From contig JBGAJA010000003.1 in assembly GCA_044225175.1 (NCBI GenBank), positions 133,428-197,427 on the forward strand: a stretch of DNA of 64,000 nt. Reading direction: 5' to 3'. The notes beneath the pieces were generated by a model. It was not told where the DNA came from and did not search any database. It worked only from the letters and a program-made list of their open reading frames with translations. Position 1 is the stretch's first letter, and every line of letters starts with the position of its first letter. This DNA is from Candidatus Omnitrophota bacterium. Its GTDB lineage: Bacteria > Omnitrophota > Gorgyraeia > Zapsychrales > Fredricksoniimonadaceae. The position numbers were made by a program, and so were the translations under genes. Positions 35,234 through 45,107 of this stretch are shown here, one piece after another.

Positions 35234-35912
<679 letters not shown>

Positions 35913-35914
<2 letters not shown>

Positions 35915-35960
35915 AAACCCTTAGTTTCCGACGGAGACTAGGGGTTTTCTCTTGCCTTTT
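35913..35960 (+). terminator. hairpin + T-run immediately after tRNA fragment
   Basis: GAAAACCCTTAGTTTCCG a CGGAGACTAGGGGTTTTC then TCTTGCCTTTTTT. Confidence 0.6.
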
Positions 35961-36017: not shown

Positions 36018-36037
36018 TGGCACAAATCTGGCACATA
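36018..36037 (+). repeat. 20-bp direct repeat TGGCACAAATCTGGCACATA (copy A; putative att / also sigma-54-like TGGCAC-N5-TGGCA)
   Basis: Identical 20/20 to 44475..44494; 16/20 to 42433..42452. Confidence 0.7.
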
Positions 36038-36086
36038 GTTCTAAAAAGATAGATTAGATGTGGGAGTTGATAAGCTAAGGAGAAGA

Positions 36087-37040
36087 ATGAAATATTTTAG
36101 TGAAGAAGATAGAAAGAAGATCGAAGAAGAGATTTCTGATTTTAATTTAAGATATTTGGAAGTTACTTATAAAATCCAAATGGTACTAAGTGAATTGAAA
36201 GAAGAAAAATCCAAAGAATATCTACTTCATGGCGCAATGCGTAGAATTAGGCTCTTGCGTCGGTGTGTCGAGAACATCTTTATAATTTATCCTCACGAAA
36301 GAGAAGAGCTTTTATCTGAAAATGAACGTGATGATCTTATGATAAATCTCCATGCATTTCTTATTAACGTTTTTGGAATTTTGGATAACCTAGCTTGGGT
36401 TTGGTTGGTGGAAAAAGGTCTTGCTATAAACATGAATAGTGCAGATGTAGGGTTGTTTAATCGGAAGACTCAAAAGAATTTTATTCAAGATTTTCAAGAT
36501 TACTTAAATTCAGAAACTATGCAAAAATGGCATTTTTCTCATCTTAAAAATTATCGGGATGCTTTATCGCATCGGATAGCTCCTTATATTCCTCCTAGGG
36601 TATTAAGTGCTGAACAAAGAAATGAGATTGCCAGAATAGAAAAAGAGTTAGAAATTGCGAGAGAAAAGAACGATTTTAGGACTATGAATCGTTTAGAAGA
36701 AGAGGAAGAAAAAATTGGTGAAGTTTGCCCGTTTTTTCAACATTCTTTATATGGTCCAGTTTCAAGAAGCCAAGTTAAAAGAGCGAAATTGACTTGGGAA
36801 GATATATCCAAGAAGTTGGTTGATAATGGCTGGGCTAAATTTGAGAGTGTAGATGTGGTCTCTTTGATGGTAAATGTTACCAAAGAAAAAGAGAATATAG
36901 CTAAGGTATTTGGGGATGATTTCTTGAAGATTCTTCCAATTCTCCAAGATGCCTATTGTATGGTATCTTTACATGCTCAAGTTATTGCTGATTTTAAGAC
37001 CATTGAAGAAATAATAGAAAAATATTATGAAATGTTCTGA
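36087..37040 (+). CDS. HEPN-like (Rx4H) Abi_2/AbiD-AbiF-like putative abortive-infection RNase
   Basis: RBS AAGGAG; motif NYRDALSHRIAPY (R-x4-H) in a predicted helical protein of Abi-like size. Confidence 0.45.
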   Translation: MKYFSEEDRKKIEEEISDFNLRYLEVTYKIQMVLSELKEEKSKEYLLHGAMRRIRLLRRCVENIFIIYPHEREELLSENERDDLMINLHAFLINVFGILDNLAWVWLVEKGLAINMNSADVGLFNRKTQKNFIQDFQDYLNSETMQKWHFSHLKNYRDALSHRIAPYIPPRVLSAEQRNEIARIEKELEIAREKNDFRTMNRLEEEEEKIGEVCPFFQHSLYGPVSRSQVKRAKLTWEDISKKLVDNGWAKFESVDVVSLMVNVTKEKENIAKVFGDDFLKILPILQDAYCMVSLHAQVIADFKTIEEIIEKYYEMF

Positions 37041-37061
37041 TTCGATACAACTTAGTACAGA

Positions 37062-38051
37062 TCAAGAGTTTGTAGGTAGGGTGGGAGGAGGTAAGGTGAA
37101 CTTTACAGTGTCAGCAACTAGATTTTCTAAATCTTTTCTAATATCGTTTATCGAGAATATTATTAATTTATATCCAAATTCTTTTAGTGCATTACTTACG
37201 AGAGTTTTATTTTCATCGCCTGTTACGGCTACCCAAATTTCTAATTCCTCAAATAATTTTTTAGCCAACTTCGCCTGATCTTCTGTTGCTAAACCAGTAG
37301 ACACGCGTGCATCCATCGAAGACTTTCGACCATTTAATATTTCTTGTAGAGTTTTTAATCGCCAAAGAATTACTTCTGGTCTAAATGCCGTAAAGTTACC
37401 AAAGAATACATATTTAAATGCTGTAAAGTCATTTAAAAGATTGAAGCCAAGAGGGCGTCCCATTTCATATATATTCTTATCACCTTCCGTATGCAGGGGC
37501 GTTATTGTCATCTTTTTATAGATTAGAAAAGTTTCCATATATTGGTCAACTGGAGTAGTAGCTAATGTGTCTTGATTCGTTTCTTTAATTGCTAGATCGA
37601 TTGCTTTTTCAGCAAGTTGTTTAAAATTAGAATTTGTGTATTTGATGGTATCTAAACCAGCGACATTAAAGGGTAGTTTTTGGTTTTTACGTTGAAAAGG
37701 TATGACATATTTATTGAAAACCAACATCATGCCGTATTCCATATTTACATTAGCATTGGGGATTTCAGTACCACTTTTTTCATCGTTGTTTAAGAGAATT
37801 ATACAAAATTGAGAGGGTATAATTTTCGAGCAGATTTTAGTGCAAAAGGCATGTTGTCCTGGAGCTAAGGAGCCACCAGCTTCCAGGGGTTCTATCCCAC
37901 GATTTTTTAAGACTTCAATTAGTATATCTTTTTCAAGAGGGCTTTCCTCAAATCCATATCCAATAAAGCAAGAACGAGTTGATGAGAATACATAGTCACA
38001 CCGGGGGAGTCCGATTATACAAAGTTCATTTTTACGTATTCTTTTGTCCAT
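37062..38051 (-). CDS. TIR-like/SLOG-like nucleotide-processing domain protein with unknown C-terminal domain
   Basis: N-terminal pattern CFIGYGFEES...ILIEVLKNRGIEP...SQFCIILLNND...NVNMEYG resembles TIR/DUF1863 beta-alpha core. It is operonic (ATGA) with an upstream XRE regulator. Confidence 0.35.
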   Translation of the reverse strand: MDKRIRKNELCIIGLPRCDYVFSSTRSCFIGYGFEESPLEKDILIEVLKNRGIEPLEAGGSLAPGQHAFCTKICSKIIPSQFCIILLNNDEKSGTEIPNANVNMEYGMMLVFNKYVIPFQRKNQKLPFNVAGLDTIKYTNSNFKQLAEKAIDLAIKETNQDTLATTPVDQYMETFLIYKKMTITPLHTEGDKNIYEMGRPLGFNLLNDFTAFKYVFFGNFTAFRPEVILWRLKTLQEILNGRKSSMDARVSTGLATEDQAKLAKKLFEELEIWVAVTGDENKTLVSNALKEFGYKLIIFSINDIRKDLENLVADTVKFTLPPPTLPTNS

Positions 38052-38263
38052 TATGTTAGAAGGCTTGAGATTGAAATTTTTAAAGCATTGGCTATGCGTT
38101 CAACAGTTCCGAGGCGGATGTCAGGTGGGGTCTTACCTTCAATTCTTTGAATATATTTATAACTCGTTTTGGCCTGTTCGGCTAATTCCTCTTGGGTCAT
38201 TCCGCGTTTTTGCCGAACTTCTTTAACTTTTTTTCCAAATTTGATATTAATTAAATTTACCAT
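38051..38263 (-). CDS. XRE-family (Cro/CI-like) HTH regulator
   Basis: GMTQEELAEQAKTSYKYIQRIEGK HTH; start at internal Met (MVNLIN); paralog of 41163..41369. Confidence 0.7.
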   Translation of the reverse strand: MVNLINIKFGKKVKEVRQKRGMTQEELAEQAKTSYKYIQRIEGKTPPDIRLGTVERIANALKISISSLLT

Positions 38264-40180: not shown

Positions 40181-40477
40181 GTGAATAATCTAATTATTTC
40201 AGAAATTCAAATTATTCCCCTAAGACCTAGTAATGGTTTTGTGGGCCTTGCCAGCTGTTCAATTAACAATCAGTTCTATATAGGCCAAATAGGTATTTAT
40301 ACAGCTCCTAATACTTCGTTAGGTTATCGTTTAACATTTCCTACAAAGAAATTAGCTTCTGGCAAACAAGTACCTTGTTTTTATCCTTATGTAAAACAGG
40401 CAGAGGAAATTGTTACCAAAGCTATAGTGGCTAAATACCTCGAATTGATGGATAACTTTCATTCTGTGGATTGTTAA
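40181..40477 (+). CDS. SpoVG-like nucleic-acid-binding protein (GTG start)
   Basis: ISEIQIIPLRPSNGFVGLASCSINNQFYIGQIGIY...LTFPTKK follows the SpoVG pattern (I..R......G...A.AS...D..F....I.V.......FP.K); RBS GAGGAGG. Confidence 0.5.
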   Translation: MNNLIISEIQIIPLRPSNGFVGLASCSINNQFYIGQIGIYTAPNTSLGYRLTFPTKKLASGKQVPCFYPYVKQAEEIVTKAIVAKYLELMDNFHSVDC

Positions 40478-41162: not shown

Positions 41163-41369
41163 TTAATCAATCAATTTTGAAGGGGTAGTTTTAAGTGCTT
41201 TAGCAAGTTTTTCAAGTAAGGAGAGACCTACATTAGGTGTATTTCTACCTTCGATCTTTTGGATATATTTATATGCAATGCCGCTTTGTTCAGAAAGTTG
41301 TTCTTGTGTCAAATTGAGTTTTTCTCGAAGTTTTTTAACATTATTTCGTAGGATTTCGGGGGTATTCAT
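41163..41369 (-). CDS. XRE-family (Cro-like) HTH regulator
   Basis: LNLTQEQLSEQSGIAYKYIQKIEGRN; start at internal Met (MNTPEI). Confidence 0.7.
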   Translation of the reverse strand: MNTPEILRNNVKKLREKLNLTQEQLSEQSGIAYKYIQKIEGRNTPNVGLSLLEKLAKALKTTPSKLID

Positions 41370-41397
41370 ACACCCTATTATAGTTAGGTGAATAAAT

Positions 41398-41430
41398 ATT
41401 GACACCCAACAATCGTTGGGTGTATATTTT
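41398..41430 (+). promoter_or_regulatory. putative int promoter overlapping operator palindrome
   Basis: TTGACA (41399-41404), TATATT ~19 nt downstream; palindrome ACACCCAAC aatc GTTGGGTGT 41403-41424 between divergent cro-like and int genes. Confidence 0.4.
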
Positions 41431-41434
41431 GACT

Positions 41435-42508
41435 ATGGCAAGAATCTTTCAAAGAGGCAATATGTGGGGTATAGATTACAAAGCCAACGGGATCCGAAAA
41501 AGAGAAATAGTTGGCCCAAATAAGGCTATTGCCCAAATTGCTTTAAAGAAGAAACAAGTTTTAATTGCTGAAAACAAGTTTTTGGATATTAAACGACTTC
41601 CAAGAATGAAATTTACAGAGCTTGCCGACAAGTATATTGAGCTTTACTTAAAGCCAAATCGACCAAACTGGCATAAAGCTGAAGATCATAACATTAGACA
41701 CCTAAAATCTTTTTTTGGCGATCGGTATATTACCGATATTACAGCCATTGATGTAGAGAGGTTTCGACTTGAAAGGCTGAAATGTGTAGGAAAGAATAGC
41801 GTTAATAAGAATACGGCCTGTTTACGAGCAATGTTTAATAAGTCTATAGAATGGAAGCTGTTTGAAGGTCGAAATCCGGTCTCTGGAATCAAATTTTATA
41901 AGCTAGACAATAAAAGGCTCAGATTTCTTGAGAAAGAGGAAATAGGACGCCTTTTAAGCCATTGTGAAGGGCATTTGAGAGACATTGTTGAGTTTGCAAT
42001 TAACACAGGGATGAGAAGAGGGGAGATATTTAATCTAAAGTGGCATGATGTTGATTGGACTAATGGTATTATTCATATTTTGAAAACTAAAAACAGTGAA
42101 AAGAGAGAACTTCCTGTTAATGAGACGGTTCGTAATATCCTAATCAGAGTAAAGAGAGATCCTAATTCACCGTATGTTTTTATGAGTTTTGACGGTAAAC
42201 CGTTCGTTGATATTAAGAAATCGTTTCATACTGCCTTAGTGAAAGCTGGCATAGAGAACTTCCGTTTCCATGATTTGCGTCACACCTTTGCGTCCCAACT
42301 TGTTATGGCAGGTGTAGACTTATTGACTGTTAAGGAACTTCTAGGCCACAAGAAGATTGAAATGACTCTCCGATATTCTCACCTTAGTTGTGATCATAAA
42401 AAGCGTGCGGTAAAGGCTTTAGATGGCCTAAATGGCACAAATTTGGCACCATCAACACCTACTCAACCATTAACTATAGAAATACCAGATAGTTGCGTAA
42501 CTGTTTAA
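41435..42508 (+). CDS. tyrosine recombinase / phage integrase
   Basis: C-terminal catalytic region HDLRHTFASQLVMAGVDLLTVKELLGHKKIEMTLRYSHL (R..H..R..Y). Confidence 0.9.
   Translation: MARIFQRGNMWGIDYKANGIRKREIVGPNKAIAQIALKKKQVLIAENKFLDIKRLPRMKFTELADKYIELYLKPNRPNWHKAEDHNIRHLKSFFGDRYITDITAIDVERFRLERLKCVGKNSVNKNTACLRAMFNKSIEWKLFEGRNPVSGIKFYKLDNKRLRFLEKEEIGRLLSHCEGHLRDIVEFAINTGMRRGEIFNLKWHDVDWTNGIIHILKTKNSEKRELPVNETVRNILIRVKRDPNSPYVFMSFDGKPFVDIKKSFHTALVKAGIENFRFHDLRHTFASQLVMAGVDLLTVKELLGHKKIEMTLRYSHLSCDHKKRAVKALDGLNGTNLAPSTPTQPLTIEIPDSCVTV
42433..42452 (+). repeat. variant copy (16/20) of the TGGCAC direct repeat inside integrase 3' end
   Basis: TGGCACAAATTTGGCACCAT. Confidence 0.6.
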
Positions 42509-42845: not shown

Positions 42846-42890
42846 CCCTGTGGTTTCGACCGCAGGGTGCGGGGCTACGAAAGTAGCCCC
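42846..42890 (+). promoter_or_regulatory. two adjacent GC-rich stem-loops (second with GNRA loop) immediately 5' of NYN gene
   Basis: CCCTG tggtttcgaccg CAGGG ; GGGGCTAC gaaa GTAGCCCC; ATG at 42900. Confidence 0.45.
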
Positions 42891-42899
42891 TGCTCATTT

Positions 42900-43856
42900 A
42901 TGCCCCCTGTAAAAACTAGTATTTATATTGATGGATTTAACCTTTACCATAGGAGTTTAAAAGATACTCCCTACAAATGGCTTGATTTTAAGTCATTGTT
43001 CTCTAAAATCCTTCCTCCTCATAGAAATGAAATTAATCATATAAAATATTTTACTTCACCTGTTTCTGCTCTTGAAGATGTACATAGACCTCAAAGACAA
43101 GATGCTTACATTCGTGCACTAAAAGCTTATATACCAGAGATCGAAATTTATTGGGGGAGATTTCAAACTCATCCTAAAAGCATGCCTAAAGCCAATCCTG
43201 ATTATCCTACTACTTCAAGTGATGTTTATTTAAGAGATGCCAAAGGAAACTTGATTTATGACAGAGTAGTGAGAGTAGAAGAAAAAGGATCAGATGTTAA
43301 TATAGCCATGCATCTTTTAAATGATGCATGGCTAAATCAATATGGTTGTGCAGTATTAGTTTCTAATGATAACGATATTGCGGGTGCATTAACTTTATTA
43401 GAGAAATACCATCCTAAAAAGATTCGAGGTCTAATTACACCATTTTGTGCTGCTAGTTTAAGAGCGTCTTTATCATCCAAGCCCTTAAATCCTGATCATT
43501 TGTTAACTCCTGCGAAAGATTTGATTGATAACGTCAATTTTGTCAGACAAATGCGAGAAGGGGTTCTTAGGGATTCCCAACTCCCTGATATTATTCCAGG
43601 AACAACAATTCATAAACCTATAGATTGGTGTTGTGGCAGAGTTTCTAAATATCCATTCCAGAAAGAGGGATTAGATTTTGATCTTATAATACCAAAATGT
43701 ATTCAAAAAGGTTATGTAACGAGCGACTATCAAGTAGATTTAGGATTTCTTACAGTAGATCAGGAATTTAAAGGATGGTTTCCTCAATACAATAAAAGTC
43801 ATTTCAATCAAATACAGTCACTTTTACATTTATTTCGTAGCTATCGTGAGTCTTAA
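42900..43856 (+). CDS. NYN (LabA-like, PIN-fold) nuclease domain protein
   Basis: IYIDGFNLYH...EKGSDVNIAMHLLNDA...VLVSNDNDIAGAL NYN motifs. Confidence 0.7.
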   Translation: MPPVKTSIYIDGFNLYHRSLKDTPYKWLDFKSLFSKILPPHRNEINHIKYFTSPVSALEDVHRPQRQDAYIRALKAYIPEIEIYWGRFQTHPKSMPKANPDYPTTSSDVYLRDAKGNLIYDRVVRVEEKGSDVNIAMHLLNDAWLNQYGCAVLVSNDNDIAGALTLLEKYHPKKIRGLITPFCAASLRASLSSKPLNPDHLLTPAKDLIDNVNFVRQMREGVLRDSQLPDIIPGTTIHKPIDWCCGRVSKYPFQKEGLDFDLIIPKCIQKGYVTSDYQVDLGFLTVDQEFKGWFPQYNKSHFNQIQSLLHLFRSYRES

Positions 43857-44495
43857 ATGAACGTTGACCAAATAACTAATATAGCGATCAAAATTCAACA
43901 ATTAGGTGATAAAGCTGACTTTACTCTATTAGTTGCAATTATAGGTGCTATTGCAGCCATTGCTGCTGCCATTGTAGCAGGTATTTTTGCATACAAGGTG
44001 AATCAGAGTAATACACAGCATCAGAAACAATGGGCTTATATTAATAAGAGAAGTCTTTTAATAGATCATGCAGTCGATACTGTTATAAAGATGATGTATA
44101 CAAAATTATTGATTTGCGATCACAATTCTCAACCTGCAAAGGATAATTTCTTTTCGCTTCAGAAGGATGCACTTTTGATTGAGAGTCATTTAATTGTTTA
44201 TGGTGCACAGAAGATCGCAGAAGCATTAAATGATATAAAGACAGATATAGTCCAATGTCCAGATAAAGAATTTCGTAATCAATGGGCATCAATTTATAGT
44301 AAGGGGACTGGATATTTAGATCAATGTCGTCAATTTCTGGGAAATGATTTAGGGAAAGATTATACGAAATTCTCAAAAGAGCTTACAGCTTCACCGCCGC
44401 CAGCTGTTGAATTTGTACCTAAAACTGTTACTGCAAATACAGCAAGTAGTTTATCTATTCAACAAATAGAAAAATGGCACAAATCTGGCACATAA
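43857..44495 (+). CDS. hypothetical membrane-anchored protein
   Basis: Single N-terminal TM (LLVAIIGAIAAIAAAIVAGIFAY); C-terminus contains direct repeat copy C. Confidence 0.45.
   Translation: MNVDQITNIAIKIQQLGDKADFTLLVAIIGAIAAIAAAIVAGIFAYKVNQSNTQHQKQWAYINKRSLLIDHAVDTVIKMMYTKLLICDHNSQPAKDNFFSLQKDALLIESHLIVYGAQKIAEALNDIKTDIVQCPDKEFRNQWASIYSKGTGYLDQCRQFLGNDLGKDYTKFSKELTASPPPAVEFVPKTVTANTASSLSIQQIEKWHKSGT
44475..44494 (+). repeat. 20-bp direct repeat copy C (putative att)
   Basis: TGGCACAAATCTGGCACATA. Confidence 0.7.
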
Positions 44496-44665
44496 TTTAT
44501 TGGCATCTTGTAAGTTGAGTAGCATGAAAGGTTAGAAAAGCGATCCTGTCACTCATAACCTGCATCTTAATGGTCAGGGGTATCATCTTTGGTATGATTT
44601 TATCAAAAGTGAATTATCTGATGATCAAGAGTAAAAACTTATAAAGTTATCATTTTCAGATGGTG

Positions 44666-44732: not shown

Positions 44733-45107
44733 ATGGACAAATTCATATGTTTAATTACAGCCGGAGCAATAGGTACTCTTGCAAGATATGGGATTGCATC
44801 TGCCATATATTTACGTATGGGAAGAGATTTTCCCTATGGGACTTTATTGGTTAATCTTATTGGATGCTTCTTAGCTGGATTCTTTGATGCCTTTTTAAAT
44901 GAGAAATTTGCATTAAGTCCGACGCTGCGGCTTTTCTTGCTGACAGGTTTCTGTGGAGCTTTTACTACTTTCTCAGCATTGATCCTAGACTCTTCGAATT
45001 TGGCCAGAGATGGCGAATTCTTTAAAGCTTTATTAAATGTGGTTATTAGTTGTGTTATTGGATTTATTATCTTTCGGTTAGGTGGAATGTTAGGAAAAAT
45101 AATATAA
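44733..45107 (+). CDS. crcB: fluoride ion channel CrcB/FluC
   Basis: 4-TM ~124 aa; LLTGFCGAFTTFSAL signature. Confidence 0.85.
   Translation: MDKFICLITAGAIGTLARYGIASAIYLRMGRDFPYGTLLVNLIGCFLAGFFDAFLNEKFALSPTLRLFLLTGFCGAFTTFSALILDSSNLARDGEFFKALLNVVISCVIGFIIFRLGGMLGKII

Follow-up and report, generated by a model that had tools for sequence, protein, structure and literature searches.

In a 64,000-nt stretch of the genome of Candidatus Omnitrophota bacterium (assembly GCA_044225175.1, contig JBGAJA010000003.1, positions 133,428 to 197,427; in the following the window), two convergent defence-like genes, here called A and B, occupy the cargo end of an integrase-bearing island of 8.5 kb (~36.02-44.49 kb). 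Gene A (36087..37040, plus strand) encodes an all-alpha protein of 317 aa that belongs to an unannotated family and is a candidate HEPN-like RNase. Gene B (37062..38051, minus strand) encodes a protein of 329 aa with an N-terminal TIR domain and a C-terminal domain specific to its family, and it is preceded by a gene for a small XRE-family helix-turn-helix (HTH) regulator, XRE-1 (38051..38263, minus strand). Our analysis leads to the conclusion, to which we assign a probability of roughly 0.6, that A and B are two functionally independent, solitary accessory genes and do not form one two-gene system. The original prediction had combined the three genes into one defence module, in which a TIR-type protein is paired with a HEPN effector and controlled by a cognate XRE regulator. 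All three open reading frames (ORFs) are present in the ORF map at the positions given above, together with the peptide strings that had been quoted from them (among these FIGYGFEE, SQFCIILLNND and NMEYG in B); the module itself found no counterpart in any other locus analysed.

The conclusion is carried by the gene neighbourhoods of both families. For B homologs 47 genome loci with 10-kb flanks were analysed and for A homologs 80 metagenome loci, which together offer 355 kb of flanking sequence and of which 40 extend for at least 2 kb on one side. Neither an A homolog nor a relative of XRE-1 occurs at any of the 47 B loci, and a B homolog is found at none of the 80 A loci, an outcome that the original prediction had itself named as one that would refute the module. 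Clustering of the neighbouring ORFs at the 47 B loci revealed no family that is present in more than a few loci, and at the 80 A loci no neighbour family is recurrent and no MNT-type antitoxin gene is found next to the A homolog. Genes for a CD-NTase (cGAS/DncV-like nucleotidyltransferase), a cyclase or a ThsA-like protein are absent from the 64-kb window, as judged by PADLOC applied to the island proteins and 44 other ORFs, and no such partner recurs at the 47 B loci or among 150 neighbours of B homologs. In the window itself A and B converge, their stop codons being separated by 21 nt without a terminator-like hairpin, so they do not constitute an operon. As neither co-location nor recurrent neighbours were found, A and B appear as solitary, independently mobile units, the adjacency of which is peculiar to this island.

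The N-terminal domain of B (residues ~26-160; 37572..37976, minus strand) is a TIR domain of the PF10137 type according to both Pfam and Foldseek. Residues 29-139 match PF10137 (CAP12/Pycsar TIR) along profile positions 3-118 of 119 with E=1.1e-5 and 25.8 bits at a gathering threshold of 24.7, and the same profile is matched in 120/120 members of the family, with a best E=4.8e-9. The original prediction had described this part as TIR/DUF1863-like, which is borne out for the TIR assignment by profile and fold and has to be corrected for the family, the best of which is PF10137 and not DUF1863/PF08937. The AlphaFold model of B has a predicted local distance difference test (pLDDT) value of 85.8 and a predicted template modelling score (pTM) of 0.57, the latter meaning that the orientation between the domains is uncertain. 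With this model Foldseek returned TIR-STING, SPARTA TIR-APAZ, SARM1, MyD88 and SpbK at a probability of 1.0, and isolated TIR domains gave TMt values of 0.6-0.66, in agreement with the flavodoxin-like TIR fold. The motif P-N-A-N-V-N-M-E-Y-G is invariant, with E105, Y106 and G107 unchanged in 120 sequences. By its position in the motif order of PF10137 and of the nucleoside 2-deoxyribosyltransferases (NDTs), Glu105 (codon at 37737..37739, minus strand) is the putative catalytic glutamate and would correspond to that of the TIR NADases, i.e., enzymes hydrolysing nicotinamide adenine dinucleotide (NAD+), and of the nucleoside deoxyribosyltransferases.

The C-terminal domain of B (residues ~165-316; 37104..37559, minus strand) is not assigned to a fold family and is a putative sensor or oligomerisation domain. 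It has no match in Pfam, the profile of the B family has none among the sequences of the PDB, and the domain shows no sequence match to STING, SAVED or cNMP-binding families. A phmmer search with this domain against 1.84 billion representative sequences recovered 83 proteins, which are consistent with the same architecture of TIR and C-terminal domain or with N-terminally truncated fragments of it (12 of these were retrieved and the others judged by length and match position). The domain is less conserved than the TIR domain, with a mean majority frequency of 0.60 compared to 0.82, and a comparison of the N-terminal with the C-terminal domain gave no indication of an internal duplication. The most conserved part of the protein is formed by residues 1-25 (MDKxIRRNExCxxGLPRCD...), which show a mean majority frequency of 0.90, yet a pLDDT of only 56-60. 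Several of the cysteines Cys11, Cys18, Cys28, Cys70, Cys74 and Cys83 (window ~37800-38051) are invariant or nearly so, in the arrangement CxxxxxxC ... CxxxC, and this conserved cysteine-bearing N-terminal part may constitute a metal site or a regulatory tail.

The B family comprises 717 homologs of ~316 aa that share 55-62% identity with B across 95% of the length. It is rare and patchy: among 185,579 species genomes at least 47 contain a member, and these belong to Planctomycetota, Acidobacteriota, Bacteroidota, Nitrospirota, Proteobacteria, Cloacimonadota, Gemmatimonadota and other phyla, the genomic GC content ranging from 0.36 to 0.70. About 6 of the 47 genomic homologs (L038, L039, L040, L044, L046 and L047) appear to be split by frameshifts or shortened and could be pseudogenes; several of them originate from long-read assemblies of metagenome-assembled genomes (MAGs), in which indel errors are common.

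Among the systems described so far, B would work most like standalone or ligand-gated TIR effectors, i.e., SpbK, TIR-STING and PycTIR. SpbK of Bacillus subtilis ICEBs1 is reported to be a NADase that protects by abortive infection, for which it interacts with the SPbeta protein YonE (PMC12847820, PMC8880864). It resembles B as a lone TIR protein that is carried as cargo of an integrative element, and the SpbK filament structure 9phb is among the Foldseek matches of B. In contrast to SpbK, the TIR domain of B belongs to the PF10137 type and precedes, at the N-terminus, a domain of 150 aa that is restricted to the B family, and the family is normally chromosomal and solitary and not typically located on mobile elements. 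TIR-STING (Cap12) of CBASS and PycTIR of Pycsar contain a TIR domain of the same Pfam subfamily, PF10137, which acts there as NAD+-degrading effector. TIR-STING structures (9lmq, 9lmr and 7un8) are the top Foldseek matches of B with E-values of 8.5e-5 to 7.7e-4, and the layout is alike, with an N-terminal TIR effector, a C-terminal regulatory domain (putative in B) and a similar total length. However, the alignments extend over ~340 columns with a TM-score of only 0.33-0.36, showing that only one domain superposes. By the gene context that defines these systems, i.e., a CD-NTase or cyclase in the window or recurring at the B loci for CBASS and Pycsar, and a conserved operon of TIR and effector gene for Thoeris, B is not a component of any of the three.

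We propose that B would be a self-contained sensor-effector, in which the PF10137-type TIR domain is joined to the family-specific C-terminal domain and would be kept off by it until a trigger, possibly a small molecule or a protein of the phage, is encountered. The trigger would cause oligomerisation of B, as in TIR-STING, PycTIR and SpbK, and oligomerised B would hydrolyse NAD+ dependent on Glu105, leading to depletion of NAD+ and to growth arrest, i.e., to an abortive infection. Gene A, in turn, would encode a HEPN-type, metal-independent RNase that may act as a lone abortive infection (Abi) or toxin-like effector.

For gene A the ATG at 36087 is favoured as start codon over the GTG at 36060 chosen by automatic callers, as it is preceded by AGGAG six bases upstream and agrees with the N-termini of the homologs. 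In a large protein collection 410 relatives were found, mostly of ~255 aa and encoded in environmental MAGs. The original prediction based the HEPN assignment on the R-x4-H motif within YRDALSHRIAP, and this motif (R157-D-A-L-S-H162, codons at 36555..36572, plus strand) stands out in alignments of 25 and 105 members: R157 and H162 do not vary among the 105 homologs, of which at least 90% retain D158. The motif is thereby a conserved feature of the family and a chance string is excluded. A polar residue directly following the arginine, R[N/D]xxxH, is the form typical of HEPN RNases. Other conserved positions are R52, R53, the I-N-L-H-A-F helix motif with N87 and H89, E109, and H296, Q298 and D302. 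Compared to typical family members A has an additional insertion of ~65 aa (residues ~222-290; 36750..36956, plus strand), which in the family alignment is common only to A and its closest relative P0002 (58% identity). In the AlphaFold2 model of A (pLDDT 89.8, pTM 0.81) the core is entirely helical and the insertion forms a small alpha/beta element with a lower pLDDT of 65-88.

Comparison of this model to the PDB with Foldseek points weakly to HepT: chains of the HEPN toxin HepT (SO_3166) account for 13 of the 22 top entries, none of them significant, with probabilities of up to 0.8 for 115-130 aligned columns, 15-20% identity and E-values of 0.2-1, the best being 0.21. The HepT signature segments VILNLQRCCEACIDIA and GLRNIAVHDY resemble the segments MINLHAFLINVFGILDNLA and NYRDALSHRI of A, so that an R[DN]xxxH motif is present in both and the INLH helix motif of A parallels an LNLQ helix of HepT. 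Furthermore, two cluster representatives of the A family, P0048 and P0061, carry the Pfam domain HEPN_AbiU2 as C-terminal extension. Within the HEPN superfamily tandem arrangements are common and the domains act as dimers or tandems, and the fusions of A-family proteins to HEPN_AbiU2 fit this mode of action. Such fusions are rare, and an AbiU2 gene beside the A-family gene is found at 0/80 loci. Standalone AbiU2 homologs of ~215 aa do exist (P0241-P0268). A different C-terminal extension of ~175 aa, containing K-R-M-N-K-E-L-S-H, is present in two other cluster representatives of the A family, P0077 and P0081, and the loci L072:6001-7293 and L073:1529-3028 likewise encode rare extended members.

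Functionally, A would be most comparable to single-gene HEPN defences and toxins such as HEC-08 (DUF3644 HEPN), HepT, AbiD/AbiF and AbiU2, with which it shares a conserved R-x4-6-H motif that is critical for activity in those systems, A being all-alpha in its predicted structure, although it falls outside all of the corresponding profiles. For HEC-08 it was reported that mutation of the motif histidine abolishes defence, and this protein was also matched to SO_3166 (bioRxiv 10.1101/2024.01.29.577857). In contrast to these HEPN defences, A matches neither a curated HEPN or Abi profile nor an AbiU2 alignment and has the extra ~65-aa insertion, and in contrast to HepT the A family lacks a neighbouring MNT-type antitoxin. 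The more specific label Abi_2 (AbiD/AbiD1/AbiF, PF07751), a family to which the original prediction had likened A, was rejected, as PF07751 gives no match to A at E<=1 and does not appear in the list of 25 families obtained with the 105 homologs. In the phage, plasmid and IMG/VR collections A homologs are represented by one weak phage match and one match in IMG/VR, and distant homologs (26-33% identity) are encoded on conjugative plasmids of rhizobia. On pRmeGR4a of S. meliloti (L131, 3812-5771) the homolog directly follows a small ORF and a DUF4238 gene, and on pSF83666d of S. fredii (L132, 3435-5642) it is located two genes past an annotated 'abortive infection family protein'; both sites are possible accessory or defence islets, and the latter neighbourhood is in line with a HEPN-like A.

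The XRE-1 protein has 70 aa when translated from the ATG at 38263, the most likely start, and is a bare HTH protein without an additional neutralising domain. It matches HTH_3 and HTH_19 above threshold (E=5.6e-11 and 1.6e-10), and its best PADLOC matches, with E-values of ~1e-12 to 1e-13, are to 'control protein' of restriction-modification (RM) systems and to capH-like regulators. Like these C-protein/CapH-type regulators, XRE-1 is encoded directly upstream of its presumed target, B; unlike CapH, it has no CapP-type protease partner and it is a paralog of a repressor adjacent to the integrase, i.e., XRE-2 (41163..41405, minus strand), to which it is 47% identical and with which similarity is detectable also on the DNA level (38123-38161 versus 41235-41273). 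On the minus strand the stop codon of XRE-1 and the start codon of B overlap in one base, as 5'-TAATG-3', and a Shine-Dalgarno sequence, which is found in front of most B homologs, is absent before B. Translational coupling of the two genes, as had been proposed, is therefore plausible, with an overlap of one base and not of the four bases of ATGA. By this arrangement, in which B stands behind an XRE paralog in this island only, expression of B would follow the regulatory circuit of the island itself. The proposal that XRE-1 is the cognate partner of B is not supported by the other loci: upstream of B homologs an XRE-like ORF was found at 0/40 loci, and conserved upstream DNA, a conserved RNA or a conserved small ORF was not detected there either. 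The pairing of XRE-1 and B is a local arrangement, unique to this island among the loci examined.

The readings that compete with two independent genes concern the context of B and are weighed here together. A lineage-specific two-gene system with a Thoeris-like logic, in which the TIR protein would produce a nucleotide signal for the HEPN-like protein A or activate it in another way, under control of the XRE regulator, would explain why A and B are immediately adjacent (21 nt) on one island and why the same arrangement was seen in two sequencing runs, which are of essentially the same element, and the ~65-aa insertion of A might conceivably have been acquired as a module for ligand binding. 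Thoeris, the analogy drawn in the original prediction, likewise has a TIR gene beside an effector gene, as has this defence-like island if A is taken as putative effector. Since the co-location counts cover the sampled loci, a partnership of A and B restricted to this one island would be compatible with them, which weighs against our conclusion. However, with 0/47 and 0/80 the conserved operon of TIR and effector gene that characterises Thoeris is absent, neither family has any conserved partner, the two genes are convergent and not co-transcribed, and the contig of P0002, the sole other A homolog with the insertion, contains no TIR gene. Moreover, the TIR domain of B belongs to the PF10137 effector subfamily and not to ThsB-type PF08937 or PF13676, and B already contains an additional domain, as do other TIR effectors that are self-contained; in a survey of Thoeris standalone TIR proteins were set aside as likely NAD+-depleting effectors (bioRxiv 10.64898/2025.12.03.692087). 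Taken together we regard a two-gene system as very improbable. Less remote, yet still unlikely, is that XRE-1 and B stabilise the island as an addiction module resembling type II toxin-antitoxin pairs, with B as NAD+-degrading toxin and XRE-1 as antitoxin and autorepressor, comparable to Xre-RES. NADase toxins with Xre antitoxins (RES-Xre) are an established class, the small HTH gene lies upstream of and overlaps with the gene for the downstream enzyme (TAATG), and NCBIfam shows a weak likeness of XRE-1, far below the cut-offs, to antitoxins of the HipB and Y4mF type. Against this stand the 40 other B loci that have neither an XRE gene nor another small conserved partner upstream or downstream, so that B is evidently tolerated without antitoxin, and the nature of XRE-1 itself, which as a bare HTH protein is closest to RM control proteins and CapH-type regulators and is a paralog of the island repressor next to the integrase.

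The remaining alternatives concern the activities of both proteins, while two independent genes remain the preferred reading of their arrangement. Several observations weigh against B as a NADase in anti-phage defence. DNPH1 and the T. brucei NDT also match the model of B with a Foldseek probability of 1.0 (TMt 0.53-0.73), and the Pfam family of nucleoside 2-deoxyribosyltransferases, Nuc_deoxyrib_tr, is weakly matched by 29 of 120 members with a best E=0.007, so the substrate of B need not be NAD+. The 150 neighbours of B homologs, examined by Pfam and PADLOC, are largely housekeeping genes (FtsK, EPSP synthase, ThiG, TruD and others) with an occasional integrase, ParE/Phd, RM, reverse transcriptase or Cas1 gene, and the enrichment of B in defence islands is accordingly weak. 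Furthermore, 55-62% identity across distant phyla is unusual for defence sensors, and no member of the family is present in 50,697 phage genomes (INPHARED), 72,556 plasmids (PLSDB) or IMG/VR. These fold matches, weak profile matches and housekeeping surroundings would suit an enzyme of the NDT/DNPH1 branch of the same fold, an N-glycosidase or transferase for nucleosides or (modified) nucleotides with a role in metabolism or against phage-modified nucleotides. Nevertheless PF10137 is matched far more strongly and in all members, with E-values down to 4.8e-9, the top-ranked fold matches are TIR NADase effectors, and the rare and patchy distribution of the family over many phyla fits an accessory gene and not core metabolism; an enzyme of this branch is thus improbable, and a NADase effector is the preferred assignment for B. 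For A the corresponding alternative is that the all-alpha protein has a different role, e.g., in regulation, as a scaffold or as another kind of hydrolase, and that the resemblance of its R-x4-H motif to HEPN is coincidental. It is suggested by the fact that A has no match in Pfam, NCBIfam, PADLOC or PHROGs, that a Pfam scan of 105 family members produced scattered noise without a consistent HEPN profile, that the family profile has no match among PDB sequences, that hhalign against a purpose-built alignment of 27 AbiU2 sequences gave a probability of 20% with a different histidine aligned, and that the best Foldseek match has an E of 0.21. In the model the motif occupies the C-terminal end of its helix, after which the chain continues as an extended Pro-rich segment; this placement differs from the textbook position in HEPN structures. 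Opposed to this are the invariant R-D-x3-H together with the conserved INLH helix motif that parallels LNLQ of HepT, the recurrence of HepT as the only specific, non-generic family among the top Foldseek matches, and the existence of fusions to a bona fide HEPN_AbiU2 domain. A role outside the HEPN RNases thereby is conceivable and on balance doubtful, and a HEPN-type RNase is, with fair confidence, the most likely function of A, as a predicted and not an established one. The HEPN assignment of the original prediction thus stands as plausible: the motif is real and invariant and the all-alpha protein leans towards HepT, in the face of lacking profile and significant fold matches.

The island that carries both genes has the hallmarks of an integrative element, i.e., an integrase, flanking direct repeats and a shift in GC content. 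A 17-nt repeat, TGGCACAAAT[C/T]TGGCAC, occurs in exactly three copies in the window (36018, 42433 and 44475), compared to 0.03 expected. The left, att-like copy TGGCACAAATCTGGCAC (36018..36034, plus strand) is located ~50 nt upstream of A, confirming the position that had been given for a TGGCAC repeat; the middle copy TGGCACAAATTTGGCAC (42433..42449, plus strand) lies in the 3' end of the integrase gene; and the right copy (44475..44491, plus strand) marks the right boundary of the island, followed by crcB at 44733. Between the outer copies, the identity of which extends to 22 of 23 positions (right copy 44475-44497), the GC content is ~0.30-0.35 and outside ~0.38-0.40. Possibly the three copies represent att sites, either of a single element or of two elements in tandem. 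The repeat also fits the -24/-12 spacing of sigma-54 promoters (GG-N10-GC) and could double as promoter.

Between the left and the middle copy the genes are arranged in the order A, B, XRE-1, a lipoprotein gene (phrog_7678), genes for small HTH and unknown proteins, a SpoVG-like gene, a DnaD-like gene, an HTH_17 Xis-like gene, XRE-2 and the tyrosine integrase gene. XRE-2 matches HTH_3 with E=3e-11 and in PADLOC control-protein and capH-like models, and it adjoins and is divergent from the integrase gene (41462..42508, plus strand; Phage_integrase E=4.5e-37, in addition Int_N). Thereby two XRE paralogs are present on one element of 6.4 kb, one of which adjoins the integrase and the other of which would drive B. 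The SpoVG-like protein (40181-40477; Pfam E=2e-5, below threshold) is encoded beside the DnaD-like or replication-initiator-like gene, which is unusual for a small integrative element. The segment between the middle and the right copy contains a third defence-like cargo unit, composed of a gene for a HEC-09-like NYN-domain protein (42867..43856, plus strand; PADLOC HEC-09 E=1e-28, Pfam NYN E=2.6e-5) and, directly following it, a gene for a protein of 212 aa, in which a membrane helix is predicted (43857-44495). HEC-09 itself was a candidate that did not confer protection when tested (bioRxiv 10.1101/2024.01.29.577857). The assumption of an integrase-bearing island with further defence-like cargo was therefore correct in the original prediction, based on the integrase, the 17-nt repeats and the HEC-09-like NYN gene.

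Genes for capsid, terminase and tail proteins were not found on the island by Pfam and PHROGs. In the absence of phage structural genes the element is to be regarded as a small integrative island or satellite-like element and not as a prophage, and together with the absence of B from INPHARED, PLSDB and IMG/VR this leaves a general role in superinfection exclusion by a prophage, which had been considered for the module, without support. A search for sister islands in IMG/VR via relatives of the integrase retrieved only generic prophage integrases of at most 41% identity, and a look-up of sequences identical to the integrase returned no record. ARAGORN detected no tRNA or tmRNA in the window. 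A fragment similar to the 3' end of a tmRNA or tRNA, GGTTCAAATCC...CCA, is present at 35837-35909 (Rfam tmRNA, sub-threshold, E=0.0065), inside the 3' end of the ORF of a GDSL lipase, before a strong terminator hairpin (35913-35949) and ~110 nt before the repeat of the island, and may be left over from an earlier integration site.

For the prediction of defence systems from gene order it follows that two defence-like domains encoded side by side on an island are weak grounds for assuming a system, and here the neighbourhood test was decisive. With the module hypothesis set aside there remain a family of orphan TIR proteins that is unusually conserved and has a C-terminal domain private to it, a HEPN-like family that lacks annotation, and a compact island with three cargo units, in which three candidates of the RNase or NADase type next to att-like repeats give the appearance of a small cargo hotspot. 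As a tentative proposal, B might represent a new class of orphan, single-polypeptide TIR immune effectors, the C-terminal domain of which perceives an infection cue directly and turns on cleavage of NAD+ (or of nucleotides) without cyclase or partner gene, and A, independently of B, a new clade of HEPN proteins that act as single-gene Abi RNases. If A or B protects against phages, this would add a new single-gene system in which a familiar effector, i.e., a TIR NADase or a HEPN RNase, is combined with new sensing parts. The B family unites a near-invariant sequence over distant phyla with a solitary, patchy spread and a C-terminal domain without relatives, and by these traits it would offer a clean model for how a TIR effector is restrained and later activated where no second-messenger synthase takes part.

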